Shown: in pieces, positions 5,395 to 22,895 of the stretch
How positions within the stretch are numbered: the stretch's first letter is position 1
Layout: each line of letters begins with the position of its first letter
Origin: Nanobdellota archaeon
GTDB taxonomy: Archaea; Nanobdellota; Nanobdellia; Pacearchaeales; GW2011-AR1
Assembly: GCA_018817905.1 (NCBI GenBank)
Contig: JAHISS010000087.1
Span: 985 to 64,984, forward strand
Direction of reading: 5' to 3'
Length of the DNA: 64,000 bases
The notes under the pieces: model-generated
Told to the model about the DNA's origin: nothing
Database searches by the model: none
Seen by the model: the letters and a program-made list of their open reading frames with translations, nothing else
Program-made: the position numbers and the translations under genes

Positions 5395-5396
5395 CG

Positions 5397-7320: not shown

Positions 7321-7357
7321 TCTGGTTTATGAGATAATCATTTGGTGCTGGTGGTGG
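7321..7357. repeat. Copy 1 of dispersed motif TCTGGTT(T/G)AT(G/A)A(G/T)ATAATC(A)TTTGG-G-rich
   Basis: 24 bp identical to 33952-33975 (TCGTCTGGTTTATGAGATAATCAT); similar copies at 36251 and 44367. Confidence 0.6.
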
Positions 7358-7379
7358 AACATATTTTTATTCAAGATAA

Positions 7380-8369: not shown

Positions 8370-9187
8370 TATGTCCTCATCTTTGTTGTTTTTTCAAGAG
8401 CATTGACGCATGCTTTTGCTAAATTGAAAGTTGTTTTTGTTTGTCCCTGCGTTTTTGTGTAGGCGTCTTTGATTCCTGCGAGTTTAAGGATTTTTTTGCA
8501 TTCGTCTCCTGTGACCAAGCCGGTTCCGCGAGGCGCTGGCCAGAGAGTAATTTTTACACTGCCTGATTTTCCCTGAACTTTGAACGGAACTGTGTGGGGA
8601 ATGCTGTCTTCTTTTTCATCTTCTGGAGATTCAAAACCAAGGTTAATTTTTATGAGGTTTAGTTTTGAGTTCCTAACTGCTTTTTCCCTTGCTGGCAGGG
8701 TTTCGCTTGCCTTGCCAAAACCAACTCCAACATGTCCTTTTTTATCTCCAGCAACTGCCATTGCAGAAAATGAAACAACATTTCCCTCCTGGGTTTTCTT
8801 TTGCGTTTGCCTCCACGCTCTTCTCTTGCCTCCGCCAAATTTTCCCTTTGCCTGACCAATTAAAATCAGGTCTGTCTCAATATTCAAAAGCGAATCAACA
8901 ATTTCTGATTCTAAAATCTTTTTTCCTTTTTCTAAAATCTTGTCAATGTCTTTTTCTTTTTTTTCTTTTACTAATCTTCCAAGATTGGTTTTTGGAACCC
9001 ATGCAGCTAACAGCACCTTAGGATCTTCCCTCTGAAATCTCCCATCTCTCCGGCCGTATTGTTTTTTTGAATTTTCTGTTTTTTCTGGCTCTTCTGTTTT
9101 TTCTGTTTCTTTCTCTAACTTTACAACTTCTTCTGGTGTTGCTTCAACAAGATCTTTTGGTTCGTTTTTTGTTTCTTTTTCTGCCAT
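8369..9187 (-). CDS. rps5: 30S ribosomal protein uS5 (with KE-rich N-terminal extension)
   Basis: S5 dsRBD/C-terminal motifs; operon position. Confidence 0.9.
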   Translation of the reverse strand: MAEKETKNEPKDLVEATPEEVVKLEKETEKTEEPEKTENSKKQYGRRDGRFQREDPKVLLAAWVPKTNLGRLVKEKKEKDIDKILEKGKKILESEIVDSLLNIETDLILIGQAKGKFGGGKRRAWRQTQKKTQEGNVVSFSAMAVAGDKKGHVGVGFGKASETLPAREKAVRNSKLNLIKINLGFESPEDEKEDSIPHTVPFKVQGKSGSVKITLWPAPRGTGLVTGDECKKILKLAGIKDAYTKTQGQTKTTFNLAKACVNALEKTTKMRT

Positions 9188-9188
9188 T

Positions 9189-9509
9189 TTATTTTCCGTG
9201 CCTCCTTAATACTGCGTCTCTTTCTGAATGTCCTTCATCCTTAGGGCCATAGCCCCTATCTCGATTCGGATGTAAAAACGTTACTTTTCCATTATGTATT
9301 GGGTAGGAAATAACATCAATTGCTTGAGTTCCAGGGACCCTTCTAAGAAATCTTGCTCTTTCCGAATGACTCCTATAATTTCCTTCATGTGTCTCACTAA
9401 AAAACAATTCCAATTCTGATCCTTGATCGGGCTGAACTAACACCCTATCTTCAGACACGAGGTTTCTTGCCTTTAACGTTTGGCTTGATTTTATTTCTAA
9501 AGTTGCCAT
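9189..9509 (-). CDS. hypothetical protein (106 aa) inserted between rps5 and rpl18
   Basis: Clean ORF exactly filling the 323-bp gap with 1-nt spacers; not Lys-rich; no r-protein match. Confidence 0.45.
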   Translation of the reverse strand: MATLEIKSSQTLKARNLVSEDRVLVQPDQGSELELFFSETHEGNYRSHSERARFLRRVPGTQAIDVISYPIHNGKVTFLHPNRDRGYGPKDEGHSERDAVLRRHGK

Positions 9510-9510
9510 T

Positions 9511-9984
9511 TTATAACTTTTCCTTTACCTCCTTAAAGATACTTTTAAGCTTTTCGTTAGCTTCAATTCTTTCTGTTTTTGGCAAGGTGCTTTCTTTATG
9601 CGGGATTTTCAAACCAGCGTCTATTGCTCCTTTTACAAGTGCGTAGATTCTTGAACCGTGAATGTTTCTGTTCAGACCGAAATCTAAAATCGCTTCGTTG
9701 ACTTTTGTCTTTATGTTTTTTACTAGGAGGAATCCGGTTAAGTAAGCGGCTGGAAGAGATTTCAAACTTCCTGATTTTTCTTTTGGCCAACCTTTTTCAA
9801 GGAGTTCCTGCGAGCTCGCCTTTGCTACAACTTTGTCCTGAGCTATTTGCGATTCAACAATCTGAGCGATAATGTAATGATTTGTTTTTCTTACGACTAA
9901 GCGCGGTTTTTCTGACTTCAACATTGTAAATCTTGCTTTGTAGTCTGTTTTTGCTTGTTTTCGGCGACGTTTTAGAGTTTTCAC
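9511..9984 (-). CDS. rpl18: 50S ribosomal protein uL18
   Basis: RRRKQAKTDYKARFTMLKSEKPRLVVRKTNHYIIAQIV. Confidence 0.85.
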   Translation of the reverse strand: MKTLKRRRKQAKTDYKARFTMLKSEKPRLVVRKTNHYIIAQIVESQIAQDKVVAKASSQELLEKGWPKEKSGSLKSLPAAYLTGFLLVKNIKTKVNEAILDFGLNRNIHGSRIYALVKGAIDAGLKIPHKESTLPKTERIEANEKLKSIFKEVKEKL

Positions 9985-10397
9985 TTTTCTTCCTCCTGCA
10001 TTTCAGCTAACCTTTCTTTCATGTGAGCCAAACTTCTGAAGTCTGAGGCCCGGATTTCTTTCCGCAATTTGTAATAATCTTCCAGCGAAATTTTCTTTCT
10101 CTTCTTCAAGTTTGAAAGATAAGTTCTTAATTTTCTCGTCATAGTAACATAATCTTGTTTTCTTGTCTTCACTGTTTTCTTTACTGAACCAGCACGTCTT
10201 CTTGTTTTTCTTTTTTTGATTTTTCTCCGTCCCTTTTTTTCCTCTATGAAAATCGCGCCAGATTCTTTCAAATCTTTCATGTCTTGTTTTGTTATTGCTT
10301 CTTTTAATTCTGCCAAGCGCGCGGTGTTGAAAGAGATTCTGTTCTTTCCTGTCTTTAACGCCCTTGCAGCTAACTCTTTTTTCTTTTCAAGTTTCAT
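9981..10397 (-). CDS. rpl19e: 50S ribosomal protein eL19
   Basis: KKELAARALKTGKNRISFN ... KKGRRKIKKRKTRRRAGSVKK. Confidence 0.9.
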   Translation of the reverse strand: MKLEKKKELAARALKTGKNRISFNTARLAELKEAITKQDMKDLKESGAIFIEEKKGRRKIKKRKTRRRAGSVKKTVKTRKQDYVTMTRKLRTYLSNLKKRKKISLEDYYKLRKEIRASDFRSLAHMKERLAEMQEEEK

Positions 10398-10696
10398 GCT
10401 GTCCCCCGATGTTGTTCGACGAATTCTGAAACTGTCTTAAATTCAGGATGTGTTTCAGGAATTCTGCTCGTTGAAGTAAGGGATGGTTCTAAAACATCTA
10501 AGCCCGATAAATTATAAACACTTCTTAAAAATGCTAACTGACCCTCCACTGGGACTGGTTTTGGATCAATTATTTCTACAACCGTTCCCTTGGTTTTATA
10601 CACTAATCCTTTTGGGATCCTTTGACAAAAAACTTTTTCTCCAGGGTGATAAGATCCTCTAACTTTCAGTTCCCTTGGTCTTGTTTGCGTTGTCAT
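10394..10696 (-). CDS. hypothetical protein (100 aa, starts MTTQT) inserted between rpl32e and rpl19e
   Basis: 4-nt ATGA overlaps on both sides; no r-protein match. Confidence 0.45.
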   Translation of the reverse strand: MTTQTRPRELKVRGSYHPGEKVFCQRIPKGLVYKTKGTVVEIIDPKPVPVEGQLAFLRSVYNLSGLDVLEPSLTSTSRIPETHPEFKTVSEFVEQHRGTA

Positions 10697-11043
10697 TTCT
10701 TCTCCCCCTTAACATTTAAAATTTTTATTTTCTTTTCAGTTGCTTCTTTTATAAGCTCCAACTTTTTCTTTGCTCCGACTTTTGCGAGAATTGCTCCCTG
10801 GTTTTTTCCCAAATCGTTTAGTTCTTTTCTGTTGTGGACTAAAACAACTTGGAGATTTTGGATTTTTCCTGCTTGTTTTTTTGGTTTTTTGTATCCAACT
10901 GAAACTGTTTTTGCATGACCATGCATGTTTAGCCTCATCTTACTGTCGCGGCCCTTTGGTCTTCGCCATTTTTGCAGTTTCTTTCTTCGCTTTCCGATTC
11001 TTGAATGTCTGTCTGCTTCCTGCCTGATGAATTTTTTTTTCAT
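10693..11043 (-). CDS. rpl32e: 50S ribosomal protein eL32
   Basis: RIGKRRKKLQKWRRPKGRDSKMRL ... HAKTVSVGYKKPK. Confidence 0.85.
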   Translation of the reverse strand: MKKKFIRQEADRHSRIGKRRKKLQKWRRPKGRDSKMRLNMHGHAKTVSVGYKKPKKQAGKIQNLQVVLVHNRKELNDLGKNQGAILAKVGAKKKLELIKEATEKKIKILNVKGEKK

Positions 11044-11585
11044 TATAATCCCCTCCCTGGTTTTGAAACCAAGTGAATACCGTCTTGGAAAATTCTTCGG
11101 TCCCTGCCTCGAACCTTGGTAGCTTTTTCAATATTTGCCATTGTTTTTCCTGCAGCTTCTCGGTCATTAGAAGAAATAGTTACCTTCTGCCCCTTAATTT
11201 GAACTTCGACATTTGGAAAAATTTTTGCATGTCTTGGAGTTTTCTCCCCTAAAAAATTGTTTATTGCGAGTTGATTTCCTTCGACTTTCAAAGTCATCGG
11301 AAAATGAACATTCACTGCCTCTAACTCGTAAACAAACTTCTCTCCTAAACCTCTAAAAAGATTTTTGATGTGCGCGATTTGCGACTTGATGATTTTGTAT
11401 TGGTTTTTGTTTCCTTTTTTACAACTGATGACAATTTCGTTTCCCTGAAGTTGTATTTCTATCTGCGGAATGTTCATATCTCTTGAAATTGAATCAGAAC
11501 CCTTTGTGCAAGTTAGTTTTTTATTTTCATAAGTGCAAGAAATGCCTTCGGGTATTTCAACTTTTTCTAGGATTTGGTGTTTCAT
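11043..11585 (-). CDS. rpl6: 50S ribosomal protein uL6
   Basis: Two-domain L6 pattern (IPEGISCTYENKKLTCTKG ... VQIKGQKVTISSNDREAAGKTMANI). Confidence 0.9.
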   Translation of the reverse strand: MKHQILEKVEIPEGISCTYENKKLTCTKGSDSISRDMNIPQIEIQLQGNEIVISCKKGNKNQYKIIKSQIAHIKNLFRGLGEKFVYELEAVNVHFPMTLKVEGNQLAINNFLGEKTPRHAKIFPNVEVQIKGQKVTISSNDREAAGKTMANIEKATKVRGRDRRIFQDGIHLVSKPGRGL

Positions 11586-11586
11586 C

Positions 11587-11952
11587 TTATGCTGCGCTCC
11601 TATCTTTCTTACAGGATAATTCTAAAACTGCTTGATAGGGTTTATAGAAACGTTCACGAACAATTTCAATTAATGGTTTGTAATAATCTGGAAAAACAGG
11701 TCTTTCTGTTTTTGGATTAATGCCATATTTTCTAAAATCTGATTGGGCCAAGGGCATGGCTTCAAAAGCTGTGTGATACTCTCTCATCAAAACGTTTGTT
11801 TTACCAGGGTTGCCAATTACCTGTTCTGCCCTGTCTAAATGTGTATGTATAAAATTTGCAACAACTAAAAATTTAGCCATGTCTCCGCTTATAGCCCGTT
11901 GTTCCCAAAGTTTTCCTATTGTGACAAGAGAAGGATTTAATTTTTTAGCCAT
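11587..11952 (-). CDS. hypothetical protein (121 aa) inserted between rps8 and rpl6
   Basis: 1-nt gaps on both sides; no r-protein match. Confidence 0.45.
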   Translation of the reverse strand: MAKKLNPSLVTIGKLWEQRAISGDMAKFLVVANFIHTHLDRAEQVIGNPGKTNVLMREYHTAFEAMPLAQSDFRKYGINPKTERPVFPDYYKPLIEIVRERFYKPYQAVLELSCKKDRSAA

Positions 11953-11953
11953 C

Positions 11954-12328
11954 TTAATAAAAATAAGCTATCAAGCTTCCTCCGATGTTTTTATCCTGGG
12001 CTGTTTGGTGAGTCATGAGTCCTTGCGATGTTGAAATGATTAAAAATCCGATGTTTTTTGCCGGCAGGTATCTCTTGACGTATTTTTCAATTTCGTCGAC
12101 TTTTACCATGAAGCGCGGCTTGATTGCGTTGCAGTTGTTTAATTTTCCAAGTTCAATCTTTAGGTTTGTTTTGTCGGTTTTGTAACTTTTTACATATCCT
12201 TTTAATTTCGCGATTGCTAAAACAGAACTGAGAAGTTTTGAATGTCTTTTTACTTCTACGATTTCCTTTCCAGCTCTTCGGATGTTCATCATCTGGTTTA
12301 GCGCGTCTGCTACTACATCTTGTGACAT
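11954..12328 (-). CDS. rps8: 30S ribosomal protein uS8
   Basis: MSQDVVADALNQMMNIRRAGKEIVEV ... GFLIISTSQGLMTHQTA. Confidence 0.9.
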   Translation of the reverse strand: MSQDVVADALNQMMNIRRAGKEIVEVKRHSKLLSSVLAIAKLKGYVKSYKTDKTNLKIELGKLNNCNAIKPRFMVKVDEIEKYVKRYLPAKNIGFLIISTSQGLMTHQTAQDKNIGGSLIAYFY

Positions 12329-12329
12329 T

Positions 12330-12560
12330 TTAACTATATTTTTTGAAGCCGATTTCTACTGCGATTTCTCGGAAGCAGTGTCGGCAGATGTTTAGATTAT
12401 ACTGATTGAGGTGAGCGCCGAAGCGACCGCATCTTTCGCATTTTCGCGCGGCGATTCCGGTCTTTCTTTCCTTCGGCTTGCAGTGCTTTAGGAACTTTTT
12501 CATAATTTCTGGTTTGTCCTTCAATTGCTTTGTTATTTTTTTCCAATCTGATGCTGTCAT
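12330..12560 (-). CDS. rps14: 30S ribosomal protein uS14 (type Z, zinc-binding); true start may be the internal Met at ~12503
   Basis: CERCGRFGAHLNQYNLNICRHCFRE is the CxxC...CxxC motif. Confidence 0.85.
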   Translation of the reverse strand: MTASDWKKITKQLKDKPEIMKKFLKHCKPKERKTGIAARKCERCGRFGAHLNQYNLNICRHCFREIAVEIGFKKYS

Positions 12561-12862
12561 ATTGTGTCTGCCTCCAAGATTTCCTTAAACCTTTCGAATA
12601 TTTCCATTTCTTTTTCTCCACGCAAACAGTCTGGGTGCATTGTATAAACACTATCATCTCCATTCCTACGCGATATTGTTGAGCCATCGAATAATAATTT
12701 AAAATGCGTGGTGCCGAAAACTTCGATTGATCCTTTGTTGTTGCCTGGTTTAATAAATTGATGATATGGGTATTCTCCATCAACATATTTGAATCTTTCT
12801 CCAGAAGGTCTGACTGGATACCATTCGCCCATTGCCAACTTTGGTTTTGTTTGTGTTGTCAT
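12557..12862 (-). CDS. hypothetical protein (101 aa, starts MTTQT) inserted between rpl5 and rps14
   Basis: 4-nt overlaps with its neighbours; no r-protein match. Confidence 0.45.
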   Translation of the reverse strand: MTTQTKPKLAMGEWYPVRPSGERFKYVDGEYPYHQFIKPGNNKGSIEVFGTTHFKLLFDGSTISRRNGDDSVYTMHPDCLRGEKEMEIFERFKEILEADTI

Positions 12863-13215
12863 ATTCTCCTTTGTTCACTCCTTTCAACCATGGCATACAA
12901 ATCTTGAAAGCCTATTGTTCCTTCTTCAATACCCTCACATGGACAGATTTTTCGGATGCTGAAATTACTCCCTTGATCCACTGCTGCCCAATATAGGCGA
13001 AGATATTTTTTGCGAAGTATCTTATCTGTTTGTGCGAATAGTGCTCTTGCCCCGTCTGTATCGGCCACGGTTCCAACATAGTTATATCTAACCCGCCTAT
13101 CTGGGGAAACTATTATATCTCCTTCATGTATAATGGTAATATCTATGAGGGGATTTGCTACTACTACCGCATGTTCACGATGAATTAATGGGGTTGCCGC
13201 TGTCATCTCACTCAA
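12859..13215 (-). CDS. hypothetical protein (118 aa) inserted between rpl5 and rps14
   Basis: Second of two tandem inserted ORFs in this slot; Ala/Val/Asp-rich. Confidence 0.45.
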   Translation of the reverse strand: MSEMTAATPLIHREHAVVVANPLIDITIIHEGDIIVSPDRRVRYNYVGTVADTDGARALFAQTDKILRKKYLRLYWAAVDQGSNFSIRKICPCEGIEEGTIGFQDLYAMVERSEQRRI

Positions 13216-13744
13216 CCTCTGTCTCGAAGTTTTCTTCGAGGAATTTAATTATTTCTTCAGGGGAAATTTTTTGTTTTTCTGGGAGTTTTCCTCTTTTGAT
13301 TTTTCTTCTCTTAACTCTTACTCCTGCTCTGATAAAACATGCAGTTACATTTAAACCTCTAATTCCAATTTCTCTTTGATATTCTATCCCGGGAATTTCA
13401 ATGTATTCATGGATTCCAAAAGAAAACGAGTTTTCTGCGATTTGCTTTTCGTCGAGCTCGTTGTCAACTGCGCCTAAAAGTTTTTTCAGGATTTCAAAAG
13501 CATGTTTTCCACGCAATGTCACTGATGTTCCAAGAGGTAAGTGCGGCTTCACTCCAAAGTCAGGAATTCTCCGCTTTGGTCCTGCCTTCATGATTTGCGC
13601 TTTTTTTCCTGAAATCATTTCCAAAAGTTTCTGCGACTTTTCAAGATTCGGACCTGTTGCTCCACAGCTAAGAACAACTTTCTCAAGTTTTACTTCTCTC
13701 ATTGGATTTTCTTTTTTTTCCTGGATTTGGGTTTGGGTTGTCAT
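13208..13744 (-). CDS. rpl5: 50S ribosomal protein uL5
   Basis: NPMREVKLEKVVLSCGATG ... EYIEIPGIEYQREIGIRGLNV; N-terminus MTTQTQIQ may be an extension. Confidence 0.9.
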   Translation of the reverse strand: MTTQTQIQEKKENPMREVKLEKVVLSCGATGPNLEKSQKLLEMISGKKAQIMKAGPKRRIPDFGVKPHLPLGTSVTLRGKHAFEILKKLLGAVDNELDEKQIAENSFSFGIHEYIEIPGIEYQREIGIRGLNVTACFIRAGVRVKRRKIKRGKLPEKQKISPEEIIKFLEENFETEVE

Positions 13745-14013
13745 CTTTGTCCTCCCGGACCTCTGAAATAAGCATTCGTAAATTGAATTAGTAAAATACT
13801 GTAAAGTCTCTCCATTGCATTAACTAAACCGAGATATGCCTCTTGATTCGGTGGCGATGCCAGGGTTCTTCTCATTTCTCCAAAACGTTGATTAATTCTG
13901 TCCCTTGCTGCGAAAAAACCTTTAATGTTATTTCCTTCTTCGGCATATCTTCTTTGTTCGCTTACATCTTTCAATACTTCTTCTGTGAAAGATGCGATTT
14001 TTGCTAAACTCAT
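13741..14013 (-). CDS. hypothetical protein (90 aa) inserted between rps4e and rpl5
   Basis: 4-nt overlaps on both sides; helical, Arg-rich. Confidence 0.45.
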   Translation of the reverse strand: MSLAKIASFTEEVLKDVSEQRRYAEEGNNIKGFFAARDRINQRFGEMRRTLASPPNQEAYLGLVNAMERLYSILLIQFTNAYFRGPGGQR

Positions 14014-14630
14014 AGCGCCACCACCTGCTGTCTTTCCAAAACAGTTTCTTTATCTTTGAGCTGTATCTTTGCCTTGCTTCCTTCGACAGAAATTATTTTT
14101 CCCTTGTTCCCAATATATTTTCCAGCAATTATGAAACAGTTCTTTGTTTTTTCCAAGGGAACGTGTTTTGTTATTTTTCCAGAAAAGTCGAGATAAACTG
14201 TGTCCTGCGTGTTTATTTTCCTGTCTTCTGAAAGAACGTTGGAACCGTCGTGCAAGTTCAATTGGGTTTTGTTTCCCTTTAATATTTTTTTGTCTATCAC
14301 TTTGCAGATTCTTTCCTTGTCTTTTGTTTTTTCAAATGTGAACTTTCCATTTGCCGTGAAAGTCAAAACATAAGATTCTCCTGCTTCGAAAACGTTGAAG
14401 AGCCGAATTGAATCTCTGTAATCTTTAATTTCTTTTCCGTTGAGTTTTAGCAATTTTTGTTTTATCATTTCTCTTACTTCTTTTGCTGTTGTCGCGAGGT
14501 TTAACATGTTCCGGACAGCTACGACGACGGGAACCGAGTTTTCCAAATCAACTAAAGACCTAGCTATGTATCTGGTTCCTTTTCTTTCTATTGGAATTTT
14601 TTTTGTTAGCTTAGCTCTTGTTTGGTACAT
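14010..14630 (-). CDS. rps4e: 30S ribosomal protein eS4
   Basis: S4e/KOW-containing pattern; operon position after L24. Confidence 0.9.
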   Translation of the reverse strand: MYQTRAKLTKKIPIERKGTRYIARSLVDLENSVPVVVAVRNMLNLATTAKEVREMIKQKLLKLNGKEIKDYRDSIRLFNVFEAGESYVLTFTANGKFTFEKTKDKERICKVIDKKILKGNKTQLNLHDGSNVLSEDRKINTQDTVYLDFSGKITKHVPLEKTKNCFIIAGKYIGNKGKIISVEGSKAKIQLKDKETVLERQQVVAL

Positions 14631-15021
14631 TTTTCTTTTCCTTTGATTTGTTTAAAGCAGATATTCTTTTTTTGTCTTCTAAGTTTAAAGTTTGAATCTG
14701 CAACGAACTTGGATGGAACCAGACGCTGACTTTTGTTCCGTCTTTTTTTGTCCGCTGGATGTTTTCCAAAGCAATTCTTGTTCTTTTCAAATCAATTGTG
14801 ATGACTTTTGCTTTTTTCTTCTTGAACGAACCGCGCATGACAAGCACTTCATCATTCTTCCTGATTGGAATGCTTTTCTTGCCGTGCTTTTTCCTTAATT
14901 CTTTTGAAAGCTGGGCGCTTAAAAACTTATGCTTTGTGTGAAGCGGCGCGTTAGCTAAGTATTTTCGCTGCTTGCGAGGCTGCTTCGAAGATTTCCATTG
15001 GGTTGAGAATTTGTTTTTCAT
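14611..15021 (-). CDS. rpl24: 50S ribosomal protein uL24 (KOW)
   Basis: IRKNDEVLVMRGSFKKKKAKVITID. Confidence 0.85.
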   Translation of the reverse strand: MKNKFSTQWKSSKQPRKQRKYLANAPLHTKHKFLSAQLSKELRKKHGKKSIPIRKNDEVLVMRGSFKKKKAKVITIDLKRTRIALENIQRTKKDGTKVSVWFHPSSLQIQTLNLEDKKRISALNKSKEKKNVPNKS

Positions 15022-15022
15022 T

Positions 15023-15322
15023 TTATGCTGCAGTCCCGCTACTTCTAATGAAATGACTAACTACTATAAGTTGGATTTCCAAGGCATTTTGAAGGTGCCC
15101 GTTAATTTCCCTTAAATGATTAACATTTGAAACATCTATGTTTTCGACAATGGCTAAGTGTTCACCAATTCTCTCATTATAATACCTTGCTCCCACTGTA
15201 TTACCAGATATTATTGCAGTCGCTAATTCATCTACGTAGCGCTTAAGAGCTTGGCTGGACCTTTTAGCCACTAAATAATTCCTTCTTTCAGAATCCTGAC
15301 TTAATCTAATTGTTGTATTCAT
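15023..15322 (-). CDS. hypothetical protein (~99 aa; the ORF extends to 15385 but the Met at 15322 abuts the rpl14 stop) inserted between rpl14 and rpl24
   Basis: Clean frame; the upstream part of the ORF overlaps rpl14, so the internal start MNTTIRL is preferred. Confidence 0.4.
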   Translation of the reverse strand: MNTTIRLSQDSERRNYLVAKRSSQALKRYVDELATAIISGNTVGARYYNERIGEHLAIVENIDVSNVNHLREINGHLQNALEIQLIVVSHFIRSSGTAA

Positions 15323-15323
15323 T

Positions 15324-15749
15324 TTACAAAACATACTGAGCAATCTTGGCGACAGATGGCCAACGCTCCTGAACCTCCCTTGCAACTGGACCTTTAATTT
15401 GAGTTCCTTTTGGATTGCCTTTGTCGTCTTTCATTAAGGCTACGGCGTTGTCTTCGAAGCAGACTCTCTCACCTGTTAGTCTCCGGTAAGGTTTCTTTTG
15501 GCGGATTACAACTGCATCAAACACTTGGCCTTTCATGTCCGGCTTTCCTTTTCTGACAGAGACTTTTACCCAGTCCGATATTTTAGCATACTGCTGTCTT
15601 TTCTTTGTTGTTTTTCCGCCTTTTACTCCTGTGATTCTGACAATTCTCGCGCCGCTGTTGTCTGAAGCAAGAACCTGACTGCCAATGTTTAAACCGCGCG
15701 TTGCTCTTGCACTAATCGCCTTTCCGAATATTTTTTTTGATTTTGTCAT
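15324..15749 (-). CDS. rpl14: 50S ribosomal protein uL14
   Basis: RGLNIGSQVLASDNSGARIVRITGVKGG ... GQVFDAVVIRQKKPYRR. Confidence 0.95.
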   Translation of the reverse strand: MTKSKKIFGKAISARATRGLNIGSQVLASDNSGARIVRITGVKGGKTTKKRQQYAKISDWVKVSVRKGKPDMKGQVFDAVVIRQKKPYRRLTGERVCFEDNAVALMKDDKGNPKGTQIKGPVAREVQERWPSVAKIAQYVL

Positions 15750-16057
15750 TATTCGATTTCCTCCAAAGCTTTCTTAATTAAAGGATAAAGCGGATGACGC
15801 CTGTTTGCCCAGTAATGATTGTGACTCTTCTGAACAGAAGAGAACGTTCCATTTGGAAAAAGGACAAAACTATAAACCGGAATACAGCCAATAGTGTGGA
15901 AATTCTCCGTGTCCACTACGATAAGACTCCCGTCTTCCATGCCTGCGTATCGTCCTTCTATCCCTGAAGCCTCTCCGATAACTACATTATCTCCAATCTT
16001 AGTGTTTCTCGCATCTTCTGCTGTTCTTACTAACAATGCGGGTCTTCGTGGACTCAT
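15749..16057 (-). CDS. hypothetical protein (102 aa) inserted between rps17 and rpl14; weak Sm/Rpp29-like flavour only
   Basis: IGDNVVIGEASGIEGRYAGMEDGSLIVVDTEN loosely recalls the barrel region of RNase P Rpp29, which normally sits between SUI1 and S17 (a slot empty here). Very tentative. Confidence 0.4.
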   Translation of the reverse strand: MSPRRPALLVRTAEDARNTKIGDNVVIGEASGIEGRYAGMEDGSLIVVDTENFHTIGCIPVYSFVLFPNGTFSSVQKSHNHYWANRRHPLYPLIKKALEEIE

Positions 16058-16398
16058 TCTCCCCCTCCCTCTTTTTTCCTAATCTTCTCAACAACAATGA
16101 AATGAATCATCTTGCTCAATGGCCTGCATTCCTGGACTTTGATTAAATCACCAATATGGATTTCATGGGCAAGTTCTTCTGGCAAACGGGCGTGGATTCT
16201 TGTTTTCTTTTTGAGAAAGCGCTCGTATTTTTTAATTTTAACTGTGCGCTCGAATTCTATGGCGACTCGGGTTGGGAATTTCCTTGTGACAACTCCTTGA
16301 AAAATCCTGCCGCGGGTTGAGACTTTAGTTCTGACTAAGTTTTCTGTTTTCTTTTTTGTGGATTTCTCTATCTGTTTTTTCTTTGACGTTTCTGTCAT
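16054..16398 (-). CDS. rps17: 30S ribosomal protein uS17
   Basis: GRIFQGVVTRKFPTRVAIEFERTVKIKKYERF. Confidence 0.9.
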   Translation of the reverse strand: MTETSKKKQIEKSTKKKTENLVRTKVSTRGRIFQGVVTRKFPTRVAIEFERTVKIKKYERFLKKKTRIHARLPEELAHEIHIGDLIKVQECRPLSKMIHFIVVEKIRKKEGGGE

Positions 16399-16424
16399 TT
16401 TCTCTTTGCTTTGCGATGTGCGAG

Positions 16425-16721
16425 TTAATCGCTGATGGACTCTTCGGGAAAGCCTAGCTTCACAAGAATCGGCCGGAGCTTTTTCTTGTGGTCGCCTTGC
16501 AGTTCGATGACGCCGTTTTTAGACGTGCCGCCGCATGCCAGTTCTTCTTTCAGGCGTTTTCCTGTTGCCTTGATGTCCACGTGTTTGTCAAACCCCTCGA
16601 CAAGTGTTATTTTTTTTCCGTATCTCCTTGTCTCGGTGCGCACTTTTATGTGCTGTTCGCTTTTAGCGATTTCTTCAAACACATCGGTTTCTGTTGGTAA
16701 ACCGAATTCGTTTGAATCCAT
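16425..16721 (-). CDS. translation initiation factor SUI1 / aSUI1 (eIF1 homolog)
   Basis: IKVRTETRRYGKKITLVEGF ... LKEELACGGTSKNGVIELQGDHKKKL. Confidence 0.9.
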   Translation of the reverse strand: MDSNEFGLPTETDVFEEIAKSEQHIKVRTETRRYGKKITLVEGFDKHVDIKATGKRLKEELACGGTSKNGVIELQGDHKKKLRPILVKLGFPEESISD

Positions 16722-16942
16722 TATTTCTTTTTCAACCCATCCTCTTTCAAGGATTTGTTGAATTTTTCTGATTTCATGAATGTATTTAATCGTGAAATTG
16801 CCCTTTTAATCTCTTTGGTTTTAGCATTTGTCTTGTTTGCAGCGACATTTGCTCTGACCAGTTCCATTTTCAAATCTTTTAACTTGCTATCTCTCTCCCT
16901 TGCTGTCATCTTTGCTATTTCTTTTGATTTTAGGATTGCCAT
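16721..16942 (-). CDS. rpl29: 50S ribosomal protein uL29
   Basis: MAILKSKEIAKMTARERDSKLKDLKMELVRANVA. Confidence 0.85.
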   Translation of the reverse strand: MAILKSKEIAKMTARERDSKLKDLKMELVRANVAANKTNAKTKEIKRAISRLNTFMKSEKFNKSLKEDGLKKK

Positions 16943-16948
16943 TTTATG

Positions 16949-17254
16949 CTATTGAACCTCCCCAGGTATATTACTTCTCCTTCTTAGTTCAGTTAATTCT
17001 TGTTCTAACTCTCCTAATGAAGACATCAATTCTACTCTCATTTGACTGGGCGCTTTTTGTGATAAATGATCTGTGGGAATGCAGGGAAGTTCTTGGCTAA
17101 TGAATTGATACACCTCTACATCCAAACTTGCCAATTGGTCAAGGAGTCCTGAATATCCTGGCAAGCCAACAGTTTGAACACCTTGCACTCTCTTTGTAAG
17201 ACTCTGGGTTTGTTTATAGAGTTCTTCGTATACTTCTCGGCCTTGTGCAATCAT
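16949..17254 (-). CDS. hypothetical protein (101 aa) inserted between rps3 and rpl29
   Basis: 4-nt overlap with the rps3 start codon region; helical, Gln/Leu/Glu-rich. Confidence 0.45.
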   Translation of the reverse strand: MIAQGREVYEELYKQTQSLTKRVQGVQTVGLPGYSGLLDQLASLDVEVYQFISQELPCIPTDHLSQKAPSQMRVELMSSLGELEQELTELRRRSNIPGEVQ

Positions 17255-17973
17255 TCTTTTTCCTCCTCAACTTTCTTAGGCGCTTTCTTTTTGACTGTCT
17301 TCTTATCTGTCTTTTTCTTAACTTCGGTTTCTTCTTGCTGGTTCATTTCTTCTAAAGTAACCTTTATTTTTTGTCTGAGAGCTTCATCAATTTTTATTTG
17401 GTCGTGAAGTTCTGCTTCTGGTCTGAGAATAGCGACTTTGACACCGACAACTCCGGCGATTGTTGTTGCCTGGCTTTGGGCCCTGTTGACTACTTTTGCG
17501 GTATCGCCGGTTTTTTTCAAATAACCCTGGGTGAATCTCCAGGTTCTGGCTCTGTCGCTTGGCAGTTTTCCTGACAAAACAATTTCTGTTCCTAAAGCTC
17601 CTGCTTTCATTATCTGTTGTAATGTTCTGTAAGCGATAACTTTGAATTTTAATGAGCCTCTTCTTTCAAGTAACAAAGCGATGTCATCTGCAACTAATTG
17701 CGCGTCAAGCACTGGCTGCGTAATTTCTACAATTTCAATGTGCGGATTGTCGAGGTTGAATCTTTTTTTAAGTATTCTTGTCAGCTCGTCTATTTTTTCG
17801 CCTTTCCTTCCAATTACTAATCCTGGACGCGAAGTGAAAACTTTTATTTTTTCTCCTACTGGCGTATACTCAATGCTGACGTCGCTGATTTTTCCCTTCC
17901 CCAAACTATTTTTGATGTAATCTCTTACTCTGAACTCATCTTTCTTAAACGCGACAAATCTTTTTTCTTCCAT
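17251..17973 (-). CDS. rps3: 30S ribosomal protein uS3
   Basis: KH domain (GRKGEKIDELTRILKKRF) plus S3 C-terminal domain. Confidence 0.95.
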   Translation of the reverse strand: MEEKRFVAFKKDEFRVRDYIKNSLGKGKISDVSIEYTPVGEKIKVFTSRPGLVIGRKGEKIDELTRILKKRFNLDNPHIEIVEITQPVLDAQLVADDIALLLERRGSLKFKVIAYRTLQQIMKAGALGTEIVLSGKLPSDRARTWRFTQGYLKKTGDTAKVVNRAQSQATTIAGVVGVKVAILRPEAELHDQIKIDEALRQKIKVTLEEMNQQEETEVKKKTDKKTVKKKAPKKVEEEKE

Positions 17974-17974
17974 T

Positions 17975-18415
17975 TTATGCGAAAACCTCCCTTAGCACTC
18001 TTAAAGCGTTATCTCTTTTTTTCCAATCTGGGTTCGTTACTCTGAGATAAGACCTGCCGTGACCTTCATCAGTAAAATGTTCTACGGTGCAATCTCTCAC
18101 ATGATAAATAAGGGAGGTTGAATCATGATATGCGCTATGATCTGGACTTGTAATGGGGGCACTAAAGTCTGTATCGCCAAAGCAGAGTATAATCGGATTA
18201 TCAATTCTGCGTTGAGGACTGGCTAATTTGGCTAATGCATTTCCTAAGTTTGCATTAGCACTTGTCACAAATTCTAACATTTCATGCATTTCAGGAAAAT
18301 CCCCCGCATCAAAGATATATAAATCAAACTCGTCGTCTCTGGCTGAACCGATTTTCCATTCAAACCCCCCAATACGATTTTGTCCAATTAACTTTTGTTG
18401 TGTTGCTTTTGCCAT
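17975..18415 (-). CDS. hypothetical protein (146 aa) inserted between rpl22 and rps3
   Basis: 1-nt overlap/gap; Asp/His-rich; no r-protein match. Confidence 0.45.
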   Translation of the reverse strand: MAKATQQKLIGQNRIGGFEWKIGSARDDEFDLYIFDAGDFPEMHEMLEFVTSANANLGNALAKLASPQRRIDNPIILCFGDTDFSAPITSPDHSAYHDSTSLIYHVRDCTVEHFTDEGHGRSYLRVTNPDWKKRDNALRVLREVFA

Positions 18416-19029
18416 TATTCCTTTCCTCCTTGTTTCTTAGGAAATTCCTTTGCTTTTAGAATAATGTTTGTCCTCTTTGATAATGTGCCGCCGCGACGCA
18501 TTTGTCTTCGCGCCCAAGAAGCAGAGGCGATGGAAATTCGCGTGGTTTCAAGTTCAAGTCCGTTTGTTATCGCGTTGCCTTTCAAAGCTTTCAAAAGATT
18601 AATAAAATATCCTGATGCTTTAATCGGGTATCTGCCTCGCTCCATGCTCCCTTTTCTGTGCGGCGTTTCTCCCCTGAACGGAACTGCCTGCTTAAACTTG
18701 GAAACTTTCTCAACGTCAGAAATTGCCTGGTCTATTTTTTTGTTTTTGATAAATCTGCAAAGATACACTGAATGTTTTTTCGAAATCGGCAATCCTGCGC
18801 CTCTGGCAATTGCTTCTTCTTTCTTAACTTTAGGAATTTCTTTCTTTTTTTCTTCCTTCTTCTCTGACTTTTCTTCAACTTTATCTTCCAATTTTTCTTC
18901 AGCTGTTTCTTTTTTTTCTTGCCTCATCTTTTCTTCTATTTCTTTGGTTTTTTCTTTGTCGACTGGCAACGGCTTTGCTTCTATCTTTTTCTTTTTTTCT
19001 TCTGCTGGTTGTTTATTTTCTTCTTTCAT
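18415..19029 (-). CDS. rpl22: 50S ribosomal protein uL22 (long KE-rich N-terminal extension)
   Basis: LPISKKHSVYLCRFIKNKKIDQAISDVEKV ... GRYPIKASGYFINLLK. Confidence 0.85.
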   Translation of the reverse strand: MKEENKQPAEEKKKKIEAKPLPVDKEKTKEIEEKMRQEKKETAEEKLEDKVEEKSEKKEEKKKEIPKVKKEEAIARGAGLPISKKHSVYLCRFIKNKKIDQAISDVEKVSKFKQAVPFRGETPHRKGSMERGRYPIKASGYFINLLKALKGNAITNGLELETTRISIASASWARRQMRRGGTLSKRTNIILKAKEFPKKQGGKE

Positions 19030-19030
19030 T

Positions 19031-19447
19031 TTATTTCTTCATTGCTCTCGATGATTTAGTTGCTCCGATTCCTGCGCTGCCGTGGTTTACTCTTGTTCGC
19101 GTTGGTGCGAATTCTCCCAACCGGTGTCCAATCATTTCAAAAGTTATTAGAACTTCTTGGAAATTTTTTCCGTTGTGAACGCCGATTGTCAAACCAACAA
19201 GTTTGGGAACTATGACTATGTCTCTTAGATGTGTCCTGATTTTTTTGCCTTTTGCAACTTTTCTATCGCATCTTTTTATGAATTTTTCAATTGAATCAAA
19301 AGTTCTTAAGACAGTTCTCCTGCTGCGTGAAGGAAGGAACTTGGCTATCTCTCTTGCATCTAGGGTTTTTAATTCTTCTATGGGCCTGCCTCTGTAAATT
19401 TGTTCTCTTCGCTTTACTTTTTCTTTTTCTTTCTTTTTGTGTGCCAT
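19031..19447 (-). CDS. rps19: 30S ribosomal protein uS19 (ORF extends to 19489; start trimmed to the Met abutting rpl2)
   Basis: GRPIEELKTLD ... IVPKLVGLTIGVHNGKNFQEVLITFEMIGHRLGEFAPTR. Confidence 0.9.
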   Translation of the reverse strand: MAHKKKEKEKVKRREQIYRGRPIEELKTLDAREIAKFLPSRSRRTVLRTFDSIEKFIKRCDRKVAKGKKIRTHLRDIVIVPKLVGLTIGVHNGKNFQEVLITFEMIGHRLGEFAPTRTRVNHGSAGIGATKSSRAMKK

Positions 19448-19448
19448 T

Positions 19449-20150
19449 TTATTTCCTACAACCTGTTCTTCTTGGACGAACATGCCCAACTTTTCTTCCT
19501 GGGGGAGCGTTACGTTTTGCTATCTTTTGTTTGACTCTCTTGCCTCGGCCAGAACCAAACGGGTGGTCTACTGCGTTAGCTTTTACTGCGGAAGTTCTCG
19601 GCCATAATTTTGATTTTGCTTTCATCTTGTAATACTTTTTCCCAGCTGTGACAAAAGGCTTTGCGACGCGGCCGTCACCGGCAATTCTTCCGATTGTTGC
19701 GCGACAGTTCTCGTTGAGGGTTACAACTTTCTTATTGGGCATGGTGACTGTTACTTCTGTGTTTTCTAATTTTTTTGAGAGTATTGCTGACGAGCCAGCT
19801 GTTCGCATCATTTTTCCTCCGTCTCCAGGATTTTTCTCTATGTTAAAAATATGAGTTCCTGGAGGTATTTTGTTTAATGGTAAAATGTTTCCTTCTCCGG
19901 GACTGGTGTTAATGGAAATTTTTTGCCCGACAAATGCGCCGTTGAACGCAGCGTTGTAGAAAGTTTTGTTCTTGATTTGGACTTTCATCAATGGAGCAGA
20001 ATGTGCGGCAGAATGGATGATTGCGATAATCTCTGCCTCGCCTTGTGCTTCGACTGGAGGATAAGCAATCTTTTTGTTGAACGCTTTCTTTCTGACTCTG
20101 TAAGTTAAACTTCCCTTGCCCCGCGCTTGTTGAATTATTCGTTTTCCCAT
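19449..20150 (-). CDS. rpl2: 50S ribosomal protein uL2
   Basis: HPFGSGRGKRVKQKIAKRNAPPGRKVGHVRPRRTG is the L2 C-terminal signature. Confidence 0.95.
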   Translation of the reverse strand: MGKRIIQQARGKGSLTYRVRKKAFNKKIAYPPVEAQGEAEIIAIIHSAAHSAPLMKVQIKNKTFYNAAFNGAFVGQKISINTSPGEGNILPLNKIPPGTHIFNIEKNPGDGGKMMRTAGSSAILSKKLENTEVTVTMPNKKVVTLNENCRATIGRIAGDGRVAKPFVTAGKKYYKMKAKSKLWPRTSAVKANAVDHPFGSGRGKRVKQKIAKRNAPPGRKVGHVRPRRTGCRK

Positions 20151-20151
20151 T

Positions 20152-20499
20152 TTATTCTCTTCTTCTAAGATTTACTTCTACCATGTCATCAAACAACTCC
20201 TTGTATCTTACATCACTTTGGTCTAAGGTGATATATCTACCACCAAGAGTTGTAACTATTCCATTCTTCCCAAATCTAAGCCCATTTTCAGACACGATAA
20301 ATAAATAAATGGAATCTCTTGTGCGTGGGAAAGCAAACGAGAAGTCTCCTTCTTCTGAACCTCGATATTGGGCTAGTGTTCCCCCAGCAGACAAGCCATA
20401 GCCGTCTATTCTTACTACTTTTTTAACCGCCCGATGCAGCTCATCTAAACTATTTACTTGTGTCTCTATATCTTCTATATCCCTTGCTTCTTGTGCCAT
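20152..20499 (-). CDS. hypothetical protein (115 aa) inserted between rpl23 and rpl2
   Basis: 1-nt overlap with the rpl23 stop and 1-nt gap to rpl2. Confidence 0.45.
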   Translation of the reverse strand: MAQEARDIEDIETQVNSLDELHRAVKKVVRIDGYGLSAGGTLAQYRGSEEGDFSFAFPRTRDSIYLFIVSENGLRFGKNGIVTTLGGRYITLDQSDVRYKELFDDMVEVNLRRRE

Positions 20500-20741
20500 T
20501 ATATCATCCCCAGCTTTGTCGCGACGTCGATGGCTGGGTTCTCCTTTGCAAATTTTACATAAGCATATTTTTTGTTATTGCGAAGCAAGGTCCTGACTTT
20601 TTCAACTTTCACTTTGAATGTTTCTTCTACTTCTTTCTTGATTTCTTCTTTTGAGAATTTTCTCCCAACCTGGAACAAGAGAGTGTTGTCTATGTCCACC
20701 ATTTTTACTGCTTTTTCTGAAGTTATTGGTTTGAGTATCAT
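20499..20741 (-). CDS. rpl23: 50S ribosomal protein uL23
   Basis: ILKPITSEKAVKMVDIDNTLLFQV ... KVKVEKVRTL. Confidence 0.9.
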   Translation of the reverse strand: MILKPITSEKAVKMVDIDNTLLFQVGRKFSKEEIKKEVEETFKVKVEKVRTLLRNNKKYAYVKFAKENPAIDVATKLGMI

Positions 20742-21520
20742 GATGTTTCTTCCTTCTTTTCATTCCCAAGTTCTTTAATTGCTTTGTGAGTGTAAATTGT
20801 CAATCTTCCCAACGGATACAAATCAGCAATGGAAATATCGCCAACTGTCTTCACTTCAACGCCAGAAAACTTCACGTTTTCTTTTTCTGAGATTATCAAA
20901 AGTGCGCCTGCGCTGGATTTGTATTTCCTTCCGCGAAGTTTTCCTTTGCCGGCTCTAACTGCTTTTTTCTTAAATGCGAGAGCAAAACTTTTCCCAAGAA
21001 TATTTTTCATGGCTTGTGCAAGTTCTTTTGTTTTTTTTGGCAGCGACTCTATGACAAAAGGAATGTTTTCAATTTTTTCAAGAGAAAAATATCTTTTCAG
21101 GACAAAGTCTTTTTGCGCAGTCGCGGCAATCGCAGAGTTCATCGCTAACTGGATTTCTTTTTTGTTAATTTTCTTTTCCTTGCCAATTCCTTTTGGGGGA
21201 TGTGCTCTTCGGCCGCCTCTTGAACCTGGGATGTTTGCGCCAACCCAAATAAACTGAGTTCCCCGTCTCGACATTGTTTTTCTTGGAACGCGAGAGATTC
21301 CTCGACCGTAGTGTCCTTTCCAGTCATGTCTTTTGTGAGATATTGTTCCTGAAGCTGACTGACGAAGCCCTGCCCGGGGATTTGAAGAATACGGCTGGAT
21401 GAATTTGTCTGCTTCGAAATATTTTTGGACGATGTCTTTTCTCACGCGGATTTCAAATATCTTGGGTAATTCTATTTGGGATTTTTTCTTTCCGTCGCTT
21501 GAATAAAGTGTTGTTTTCAT
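20738..21520 (-). CDS. rpl4: 50S ribosomal protein uL4 (ORF extends to 21628; start trimmed to MKTTLYSSDGKK)
   Basis: Archaeal L4 N-terminus, and RGGRRAHPPKG. Confidence 0.85.
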   Translation of the reverse strand: MKTTLYSSDGKKKSQIELPKIFEIRVRKDIVQKYFEADKFIQPYSSNPRAGLRQSASGTISHKRHDWKGHYGRGISRVPRKTMSRRGTQFIWVGANIPGSRGGRRAHPPKGIGKEKKINKKEIQLAMNSAIAATAQKDFVLKRYFSLEKIENIPFVIESLPKKTKELAQAMKNILGKSFALAFKKKAVRAGKGKLRGRKYKSSAGALLIISEKENVKFSGVEVKTVGDISIADLYPLGRLTIYTHKAIKELGNEKKEETS

Positions 21521-21524
21521 TTTG

Positions 21525-21812
21525 CTAAATATATTGAATATTTCCCCCTGCTTCCAATCTTGCAGATATTTCTGGAATGGACTCAAGGGTTCCAACCCTT
21601 TCGACTGTTTTTCCAGTTTCTGATTCATAAACTCGAGTTAGATAGTCACATGAAGCTAAAACATGAACTCGCATAATCACTAATCTGTCATCAAGTGTCT
21701 GCGCTTTTTCACAATCGCCATTTTCTCTAGCACCCTTAGCAGCCTTTCTAAATAAGTCATGCTTTTTCTTCCAATAAATTACTCTTTCTGCAGCTTTTTT
21801 TAATTCGCTCAT
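21525..21812 (-). CDS. hypothetical protein (95 aa) inserted between rpl3 and rpl4
   Basis: ATG 1 nt after the rpl3 stop; ends 4 nt before the rpl4 start. Confidence 0.45.
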   Translation of the reverse strand: MSELKKAAERVIYWKKKHDLFRKAAKGARENGDCEKAQTLDDRLVIMRVHVLASCDYLTRVYESETGKTVERVGTLESIPEISARLEAGGNIQYI

Positions 21813-21813
21813 T

Positions 21814-22755: not shown

Positions 22756-22895
22756 GTGTTGTGTTTACCATTTTGTTTTGGGTGCAACTCTCCCTGTTTA
22801 TGTAAATCTTGAGGGTGAAGATTCCTCTTGATTTGTATTAGATTCTTACGGGTTGAGATGATAATTGGGGTTTTTAAAACTTTGTGGCTTGAGAA

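Follow-up and report, generated by a model that had tools for sequence, protein, structure and literature searches.

In the present study we analysed a 64,000-nucleotide (nt) stretch of contig JAHISS010000087.1 from a Nanobdellota archaeon (hereafter the window; about 38% GC) and found that its ribosomal protein (r-protein) superoperon, which runs from L3 to L15, carries 12 extra open reading frames (ORFs) of 90-146 codons. All of these inserts (ins1 to ins12; Table 1) lie on the same strand as the operon, and they are spread over 11 of its gene junctions. Our results are probably best explained if they are native, translationally coupled accessory genes of the junctions, that is, a lineage-wide set of small folded proteins with fast turnover that is tolerated in an essential operon. 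On this reading, the 12 ORFs encode genuine small proteins and use native codons. The operon itself follows the canonical archaeal order (L3-L4-L23-L2-S19-L22-S3-L29-SUI1-S17-L14-L24-S4e-L5-S14-S8-L6-L32e-L19e-L18-S5-L30-(60-aa ORF)-L15; aa, amino acids). Since L29 (16721-16942) and S14 (12330-12560) are both there, no r-protein was replaced by an insert. A preliminary description of this DNA had placed the twelve ORFs at the same sites, and the extents of two were corrected, that of ins6 from 15023-15385 to 15023-15322 and that of ins8 to 12859-13206.

Table 1. Inserts of the L3-to-L15 operon, the two stand-alone ORFs of similar composition, and the surrounding landmarks (window positions)
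Feature	Positions	Strand	Length (aa)	Location	Signals and remarks
ins1	21525-21812	-	95	L3/L4	TAAAATG on L3 stop; GGGGG site ahead of L4 ATG
ins2	20152-20499	-	115	L23/L2	TAATG overlap with L23 stop
ins3	17975-18415	-	146	L22/S3	TAATG overlap with L22 stop
ins4	16949-17254	-	101	S3/L29	ATGA overlap with S3 stop; GGGGAGG before L29 ATG
ins5	15749-16057	-	102	S17/L14	ATGA with S17, TAATG with L14; internal GGAGG near 3' end
ins6	15023-15322	-	99	L14/L24	ATG start; TAAAATGAA at each end
ins7	13741-14013	-	90	S4e/L5	ATGA overlap at each end
ins8	12859-13206	-	115	L5/S14, first of two	ATG start; ATGA overlap with ins9
ins9	12557-12862	-	101	L5/S14, second of two	Start ATGACAAC; TGA overlaps S14 ATG (MTASDWKK...)
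ins10	11587-11952	-	121	S8/L6	AGGAG site before own stop
ins11	10394-10696	-	100	L32e/L19e	ATGA overlap at each end; GGGGG before own stop
ins12	9189-9509	-	106	L18/S5	10-nt direct repeat TAAAATGGCA at each end; AGGAGG before own stop
Stand-alone ORF	363-752	+			R/(R+K) 0.53; class membership uncertain
ORF upstream of EMC3-like gene	1399-1722	-			R/(R+K) 0.70; class membership uncertain
L3-to-L15 r-protein superoperon	7380-22755	-			From Pfam families of genes called on identical public contigs and tblastn mapping
SecY	3573-4970			Downstream of r-protein operon	

The coding status of the inserts was supported by several properties of their sequences. An open run as long as the insert appeared in only 0-5 of 5000 shuffles for each ORF (in one of the 5000 for ins1, for which no family match was obtained), and the antisense strand was open for 40-66 codons only. 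The codon-position periodicity was strong, with GC fractions of 0.49, 0.39 and 0.29 at the first, second and third positions (GC1, GC2 and GC3). A structured RNA in place of a protein was considered and rejected in view of this periodicity, the ratio of nonsynonymous to synonymous substitution rates (dN/dS, see below) and the absence of any Rfam family match in the region.

The junctions of the inserts followed the same grammar as those of the operon. Each insert ATG overlapped or abutted the preceding stop (ATGA, TAATG or TAAAATG, within 1-2 nt), a GGAGG- or GGGGG-like site lay 6-12 nt before each insert's own stop, and this stop overlapped or abutted the following ATG. The features of termination-reinitiation coupling, namely a stop/start overlap (-4/-1) or a very short spacer together with an embedded site of Shine-Dalgarno (SD) type, were found at both ends of all 12 inserts; the loosest case was the 4-nt spacer from ins1 to L4. 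Identical overlaps and embedded GGAGG sites are used by the r-protein genes of the operon. For example, the C-terminus of ins3 (...REVFA) encodes the GGGAGGT that precedes the S3 ATG. Ins8 begins 1 nt past the L5 stop and its start, ATGACAGC, is that of S14; ins8, ins9 and S14 share the start ATGACA(G/A)C. In ins10, TAAGATG with an unusual shared G was observed at each end, where the relatives have TAA(A)ATG. Promoter and terminator consensus scans did not rise above shuffle expectation, with consensus sets that do not cover archaeal promoters. The overlaps ATGA and TAATG, as well as very short spacers, are described for coupled archaeal gene pairs in two earlier reports (Huber et al. 2019, PMC6728339; PMC10666635). 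The inserts have these overlaps, and neither report mentions the use of such sites as landing places for new genes.

Some N-termini were alike: MTTQT (ATGACAAC.CAAAC) was seen in ins9 (12848-12862), ins11 (10682-10696) and L5 (13730-13744), and the ORF at 61952-62386 begins with MTQTQ (start at 62372-62386). A conserved terminal motif, a candidate raised by the MTTQT N-termini, was rejected. Only 15 of 268 inserts start with M[TI]xQ, which is a mild tendency and no terminal motif, and the start context was the general TAAAATGA consensus.

The amino acid composition of the inserts differed from that of their host. Lys made up 2.5-9.5% and Arg 6-11% of their residues, and R/(R+K) was 0.42-0.82, whereas the median of 48 other genes of the window was about 0.29 (p=3.5e-6, Mann-Whitney). 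His plus Gln was also raised against the other window genes (p=2.6e-4). Relative to the non-ribosomal host genes, Arg was 8.3 vs 3.6%, Lys 5.1 vs 8.3%, His 2.8 vs 1.0% and Gln 3.9 vs 2.5%. The preliminary description had called the inserts rich in Arg, Ala, Gly, Asp and Val and poor in Lys. The rise of Arg and the fall of Lys were borne out. However, Asp (5.3 vs 5.4%), Gly (6.9 vs 7.5%) and Val (6.9 vs 7.3%) were not enriched over the non-ribosomal genes and Ala was only slightly up (6.8 vs 5.7%), so that the full wording holds only against the Lys-rich r-proteins. Its statement that the third codon positions are A/T-rich and host-like was confirmed. The inserts had a mean GC3 of 0.286, below the 0.341 of other genes (p=0.002) and the approximately 0.38 of r-protein genes, and synonymous usage was native: AGA and AGG made up 77% of the insert Arg codons, like in the host, and A-ending codons dominated, like in the surrounding operon. 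The codon adaptation index (CAI) of inserts and other host genes was 0.665 vs 0.665 with the r-protein reference and 0.696 vs 0.707 with the other-gene reference. With respect to non-ribosomal genes, therefore, the codon statistics of the inserts were indistinguishable while their amino acid composition was distinct. The low GC3 of the inserts is most likely explained by the lack of a preference for C-ending codons such as the r-protein genes have. The two stand-alone ORFs at the foot of the inserts in Table 1 had been credited with the same character, and their Arg/Lys bias agreed with this. Neither gave a match in Pfam, PHROGs, PADLOC or NCBIfam, and ORF 363-752 had no relative among the related loci.

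The composition was also compared with the expectation from the genetic code. Observed and code-expected R/(R+K) were 0.62 and 0.54 for the window inserts, 0.48 and 0.45 for the inserts of relatives, and 0.30 and 0.57 for the remaining genes of the host; the inserts were likewise close to code expectation in His and Gln. Since the host genes lie far below the code-expected Arg and the inserts near it, the oddity resides as much in the old host proteins as in the inserts. In both the ins2 and the ins3 family, the highest R/(R+K) was that of the window member (0.75 vs 0.43-0.50 and 0.62 vs 0.33-0.50, respectively), indicating that the Arg-for-Lys excess arose within this lineage, in fast-evolving proteins. 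Furthermore, the GC content of the window lineage exceeded that of its relatives at every codon position. We infer that the Arg/Lys ratio of weakly constrained inserts would settle near the value predicted from the genetic code and local base composition, whereas old host proteins would hold Arg far below it, and that the GC-richer window lineage would show the strongest contrast.

The array is not peculiar to a single assembly. An identical contig, JAHIYI010000162 of GCA_018815165.1, is public under the label 'Nanoarchaeota archaeon', and the array was 99.99-100% identical in GCA_018815165.1 (metagenome-assembled genome at NCBI), ERZ27247128 (ENA), and SRR27458548 and SRR6514274 (Logan, unrelated runs). 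In a third Logan contig, from SRR10598177, the match was restricted to the ins3-S3-ins4 segment. The nearest species-level relatives carry the labels Pacearchaeota or Woesearchaeota (DPANN archaea).

Inserts of the same kind were widespread in these relatives. We compared the operon of 80 species representatives and 80 metagenome contigs, in which S3 was 61-85% identical, and mapped every junction; many of these loci are metagenome bins and some of the metagenome contigs duplicate species representatives. In 64 of the 80 species loci, 203 insert ORFs were found, with a median length of 104 aa and a median net charge of 0. They differed from the remaining genes of these loci in R/(R+K) (0.47 vs 0.31, p=5e-26) and had a lower GC3. 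For 67 species, 15 or more junctions could be scored. These species had inserts at 0-7 junctions (median 2), 13 of them at none, so the window with its 11 inserted junctions is the extreme. Gap lengths were bimodal: 743 junctions measured -5 to +6 nt, and the counts dipped at 100-200 nt before they peaked again at 250-400 nt. This distribution indicates that the inserts are discrete gene-sized units of about 300 bp and not growing spacers. In the approximately 160 loci, 307 of the 415 enlarged gaps were wholly tiled by chains of coupled ORFs. The occupied junctions were unevenly distributed, with hot spots at L14/L24 (40% of species), L23/L2 (35%), L3/L4 (31%), S17/L14 (31%) and L5/S14 (28%), while L29/SUI1 was never occupied. 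The insert proteins were diverse, for 309 distinct proteins fell into 219 clusters with 179 singletons, and a Pfam domain was recognised in about 7 of 150 cluster representatives (NUDIX, HD/YfbR-like, MazG, RNase_T/DEDD exonuclease and DUF5678). At the L4/L23 junction, 13 related loci (e.g. L052, 7438-8154) carry a family of about 200-240 aa with an RNase_T/DEDD exonuclease domain (E=9e-13). This family evolves at a rate similar to that of r-proteins and is absent from the window.

Homologues of the window inserts were few. No match was obtained for any of the 12 inserts or the two stand-alone ORFs in Pfam, PHROGs, PADLOC or NCBIfam. An all-against-all BLASTP of the window inserts detected no mutual similarity, so they are not one paralogous family, and a scan of 7000-23000 revealed no shared terminal or internal, inverted or direct repeats among them. 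The billion-scale protein databases were searched with ins2 and ins3; the other ten inserts were compared with the approximately 160 related loci and with the four libraries of hidden Markov models named above. Against 5.8 billion proteins, ins3 matched only itself. A HMMER scan of 1.84 billion representative proteins detected five relatives of 126-136 aa, which share the invariant motifs Y..DCT..F and KR..A...L.E.F as well as a conserved C-terminus, ...L.EVFA, that codes for the GGAGGT site of S3. The relative in locus L120 was placed at L22/S3, the junction of ins3 itself. The ins2 family profile recovered four clusters among the 5.8 billion proteins, and the relatives that could be placed (L095/L096, L110 and P0012) were all at L23/L2. 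Diverged relatives of ins2, ins3 and ins6 occurred at their own junctions in species whose r-proteins were 65-75% identical; those of ins6, in L166 and L028 at L14/L24, were weak. Ins7 was weakly related to the S14/S8 inserts of L010 and L018, and its family thus covers two junctions. Ins4 had no relative in any of the approximately 160 related loci. In addition, the large repetitive proteins P0005 (5641 aa) and P0008 (768 aa) matched ins3 in 8 and 10 repeated segments (ins3 residues 25-65 and 76-110, E about 1e-5 to 1e-6); this similarity could reflect either a repeat motif in common or an artefact of composition.

AlphaFold2 gave a confident model of ins2, with a predicted local distance difference test score (pLDDT) of 83.2 and a predicted template-modelling score (pTM) of 0.78, and a fair one of ins3, with a pLDDT of 72.6. 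Neither model matched a PDB structure with E<0.1. In the viral structure library BFVD the best match had E=0.02 (template-modelling scores 0.37-0.45), which was not significant, and the ins3 family profile found no viral relative in IMG/VR.

Homologous inserts mostly stayed at one place. In 84 of 104 significant homologous pairs (81%) both members occupied the same junction, compared with 9% expected by chance; the other 20 pairs mostly link neighbouring junctions, and paralogues within single loci occur. The inserts evolved quickly, with a nonsynonymous divergence (dN) that was a median of 3.7 times that of r-proteins in the same genome pairs, and they fell to 37-41% identity where r-proteins were 90-96% identical. 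dN/dS was 0.15-0.44 in the five least diverged insert pairs, synonymous divergence (dS) being saturated in most pairs. From these ratios, the inserts appear to be under moderate purifying selection. The DNA of one insert pointed to exchange between species: in L014 (255-847) and L024 (about 6540-7121), the L4 3' end and the adjoining 128-aa NUDIX insert were 83-100% identical, whereas the neighbouring genes were about 65% identical. This stretch is a recent recombination tract.

Turnover was observed even between close relatives. One insert distinguishes L062 from L162, whose S3, L2 and L14 are 99% identical. In the pair L023/L026 (96%) four junctions differ, and in the pair L137/L138 (91%) six. 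The empty junctions of relatives were clean overlaps of -4 to +1 nt without precursor DNA, indicating that sequence was truly inserted or precisely deleted. The best-resolved case with repeats was S19/L22, where L104 reads S19-TAAAATGACA-L22, a clean empty site, and its close relative L045 has an ORF of about 380 bp between perfect copies of TAAAATGACG. With TAAAATGACG on both sides, the L045 insert uses the start codon in one copy and the stop codon in the second. The ins3-family insert of L120 opens with the same five codons as S3. In 268 distinct inserts, the first 21 nt past the ATG of the insert and of the next gene agreed at 8.22 positions. Pairs drawn at random agreed at 7.45 (z=7), and a comparison with other junctions within the locus gave 7.80. 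Duplication of the flanking r-protein genes, whether in frame or out of frame, was rejected as the origin of the inserts, because about 320 of 329 inserts had no DNA similarity to their own locus. In L125, a 99-bp segment of the L14/L24 insert (about 9473-9571) recurs at 17177-17275 and 1347-1443 with 94-99% identity.

We therefore consider junction genes of native origin the probable explanation, and the following course of events is proposed. The inserts would be transcribed together with the r-protein genes, and their translation would proceed by termination-reinitiation coupling. As each insert starts on or within 1-2 nt of the preceding stop and embeds a GGAGG-like site for the next cistron, the essential downstream gene would still be expressed, and the inserts would be tolerated in the essential operon because each preserves coupling to the next gene. 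The comparison of loci shows that they are gained and lost as precise units, in many cases flanked by a short direct repeat that comprises the stop/start and the opening codons of the gene downstream. Once in place, a junction gene persists at one junction while diverging about four times faster than r-proteins, copying now and then to a neighbouring junction; one insert was transferred from one species to another by homologous recombination in the conserved genes on either side. The products would be dispensable, folded, cytosolic accessory or passenger proteins, tolerated as harmless, and not new ribosomal proteins. In fact, their net charges were -6 to +6, compared with +7 to +37 for the r-proteins proper, and the 13 of 67 species without inserts also speak against a ribosomal role.

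Several points weigh against this proposal. The confidently predicted folds, and the long time for which some families have stayed at one junction, agree better with a genuine and perhaps junction-specific function than with a mere passenger role. Translation of the inserts is deduced from sequence grammar and dN/dS. The flanking-repeat signal is real yet modest, and a shared optimal start context (the TAAAATGA consensus) could contribute to it; no recombinase, terminal inverted repeat or attachment (att)-like site was found for the inserts. Regarding composition, the observed 0.62 exceeds the neutral 0.54 and the GC3 of the inserts is below that of other genes, so an account in which they merely track a GC shift is incomplete. 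Finally, the observed frequency of inserts applies to the r-protein operon, the one operon that was surveyed.

A dedicated mobile element is a possible but doubtful alternative. In this case the inserts would be junction-targeting cassettes that duplicate a target site in the start region, borrow start and stop codons, and depend on an enzyme encoded elsewhere in the genome. The perfect repeats of 9-10 nt around inserts (longer and imperfect in L120) with clean empty sites in close relatives are as expected from such cassettes, and so are the similarity at paired junctions above both controls, the discrete unit size of about 300 bp, the presence/absence differences between relatives at 96-99% identity, and the families that occur at different junctions or as paralogues within one locus. 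Repeated elements at junctions were indeed found in L095 (5000-20645; duplicate L096), where two families of repeated ORF elements of 25-60 aa sit at no fewer than 12 r-protein junctions. They start with MITQK..., contain a CCAAAACC...GGTTTTGG hairpin, carry their own SD-ATG and end with GGAGGTTTTGGTTATGA. They look like miniature inverted-repeat transposable elements specialised for gene junctions, so junction-colonising selfish DNA exists in the lineage. However, the repeats around the inserts vary in length, many being short or decayed, junctions in general have TAAAATGA as their consensus context, the window inserts have no terminal sequences or repeats in common, 81% of the homologous pairs share a junction, and precise deletion between junction repeats would give identical polymorphisms. 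Furthermore, no transposase or integrase was tied to the inserts. The IS200-like transposase at 6428-6913 was rejected as a mobiliser, being absent from all of the approximately 160 related loci, insert-bearing ones included, and a test for IS200/IS605 derivatives detected the Y1 transposase in the window only and no hairpin ends at the inserts. Only tentatively, then, could one speak of a Pacearchaeota class of mobile cassettes that targets stop-start junctions, carries the ribosome-binding site for the next gene, and spreads between species by recombination in ultra-conserved flanks.

It is unlikely that the inserts are functional partners of the r-proteins, i.e. neutral or acidic escort or assembly factors, each made one-to-one beside a very basic r-protein like the r-protein chaperones of eukaryotes. 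The charge difference noted above, the persistence of families at one junction, the predicted folds and dN/dS below 1 would all suit this idea. The hot spots flank L3/L4, L2, S3, L14 and L5, and in eukaryotes dedicated chaperones exist for uL3, uL4, uS3, uL14 and uL5. Gene pairs whose products are interacting subunits typically show tight translational coupling (PMC10666635). However, inserts are dispensable in many species, and their absence from 13 of 67 species together with the differences between near-identical relatives means that such a role cannot be essential. Some families occur at different junctions, and those few inserts that could be recognised encode enzymes acting on nucleotides or RNA (NUDIX, HD, MazG and DEDD exonuclease) and no chaperones. 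De novo genes that became coding only recently, and were born elsewhere than at the junction, are a still weaker candidate. The orphan status, the narrow lineage, the near-neutral frequencies of Arg, His and Gln, the fast evolution (dN/dS up to about 1 in many pairs) and the lack of translational codon selection despite the operon context are in keeping with recent birth; birth in place is excluded by the empty junctions without precursor DNA. The bimodal rather than gradually growing gap lengths, the lack of DNA similarity to flanking genes in nearly all inserts, the strong codon periodicity, and the confident folds and conserved motifs of ins2 and ins3 across deep divergence argue otherwise. 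Quite improbable is an old horizontal acquisition from higher-GC genomes with synonymous sites that have since drifted to the AT-rich usage of the host. It would explain the Arg-rich, Lys-poor composition beside native third positions, the patchy distribution among relatives and the true insertion of DNA seen from empty junctions of 0-4 nt in relatives. However, the large protein searches found for ins2 and ins3 only a few relatives of similarly small size, those that could be placed were at the same junction, and they were lower in R/(R+K). The four profile libraries gave no match, Asp, Gly and Val were not raised over other host genes, Arg is coded by AGA/AGG, and CAI is like that of the host. 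The preliminary description had suggested either long-ameliorated acquisitions or recent recoding. Of the former, long residence with fully native codons was upheld by the same-junction relatives of ins2, ins3 and ins6, but acquisition from a higher-GC genome was not supported in view of the few small, Arg-poorer relatives of ins2 and ins3; recent recoding was contradicted by the identical array in five natural assemblies and by ordinary divergence with dN/dS below 1. An artefact, whether spurious spacer ORFs, an assembly chimera or synthetic or recoded sequence, is scarcely credible. The missing database families would allow it, but the ORF lengths far beyond chance, dN/dS below 1, the array in five independent assemblies and the diverged relatives at the same junction do not.

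The junction genes proposed here resemble several known systems in part. Like phage morons, they are small, variable and mostly orphan genes at fixed boundaries between co-oriented core genes, present or absent in close relatives. Morons classically bring their own promoter and terminator and reside in viral genomes. By contrast, the inserts have no intergenic room for a promoter or terminator, depend on coupling, and lie in an essential cellular operon. Integron cassettes are likewise promoterless, co-oriented and mostly orphan ORFs of about 100 codons and discrete size, which are served by an upstream promoter and gained or lost as units. However, the insert ORFs fill the whole gap, leaving no attC-like structured site after each, and they are interleaved with essential genes instead of being stacked at one attI; no IntI integrase was recognised among the inspected window ORFs, a subset of the total. 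Rickettsia palindromic elements, which insert inside genes as multicopy repeats, are selfish DNA tolerated by keeping frame and translation, and the junction ORFs of L095/L096 look similar. The 12 window inserts differ from them in being unique, mutually unrelated and located between genes, with at least ins2 and ins3 predicted to fold. Homing-endonuclease genes and inteins also lodge harmlessly in or between the most conserved genes and spread by recombination in conserved flanks, but no nuclease or splicing domain of that kind was detected in any insert. In bacteria, Brandis (2021, PMC8046335) reported 163 r-protein cluster alterations in total in Gammaproteobacteria and Bacilli; the insertions analysed in detail were a few known genes, mostly between operons. 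That study agrees with ours in that foreign genes can enter an r-protein cluster. It is different from the present case, in which orphans occupy 11 junctions inside one operon of a single genome and the median is two per species. Our literature search, with many subscription journals lying outside it, found no account of orphan genes interleaved in archaeal r-protein operons. Such a breach of the very conserved r-protein array by orphan genes is apparently undescribed.

Other observations were made in and around the operon. The contig from SRR10598177 (locus L005) equals the window down to 16907, inside L29, and is about 20% divergent beyond it through L29 and SUI1; two more public contigs terminate exactly at 16906-16907 (loci L003, L004 and L005). 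This suggests a recombination or strain breakpoint in L29. Between L30 and L15, a 60-aa ORF (7765-7947, minus strand) has two Cys pairs and is zinc-ribbon-like without a Pfam match. It was kept at the same place in at least 28 related loci and, in contrast to the variable inserts, may be a lineage-conserved member of the operon. L15 and SecY are set apart by a 2.4-kb insertion (4971-7379), where relatives L008 and L009 have 3 bp. It contains the IS200-like Y1 transposase (minus strand; Pfam E=2e-22), and the opposite-strand ORFs 5119-5394 and 5397-6263 within it gave no family match.

The L3-to-L15 array is among the most conserved gene orders of prokaryotes and serves routinely as a marker block in the phylogeny of uncultured lineages. 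Inserts in it are therefore a practical hazard for marker-gene concatenation, binning and annotation of DPANN genomes. Furthermore, a 'foreign-looking' amino acid composition need not imply horizontal transfer, since weakly constrained proteins can sit at code-neutral Arg/Lys. If the mobile-cassette explanation were true, the r-protein operon itself would have been colonised without harm by an operon-level counterpart of inteins and introns, which would be a continuous source of new small proteins. For the junction genes that we favour, the operon offers a natural system in which harmless insertion and the evolution of orphan proteins under obligatory high expression can be studied, and essential operons can serve as landing pads and nurseries for new small proteins.

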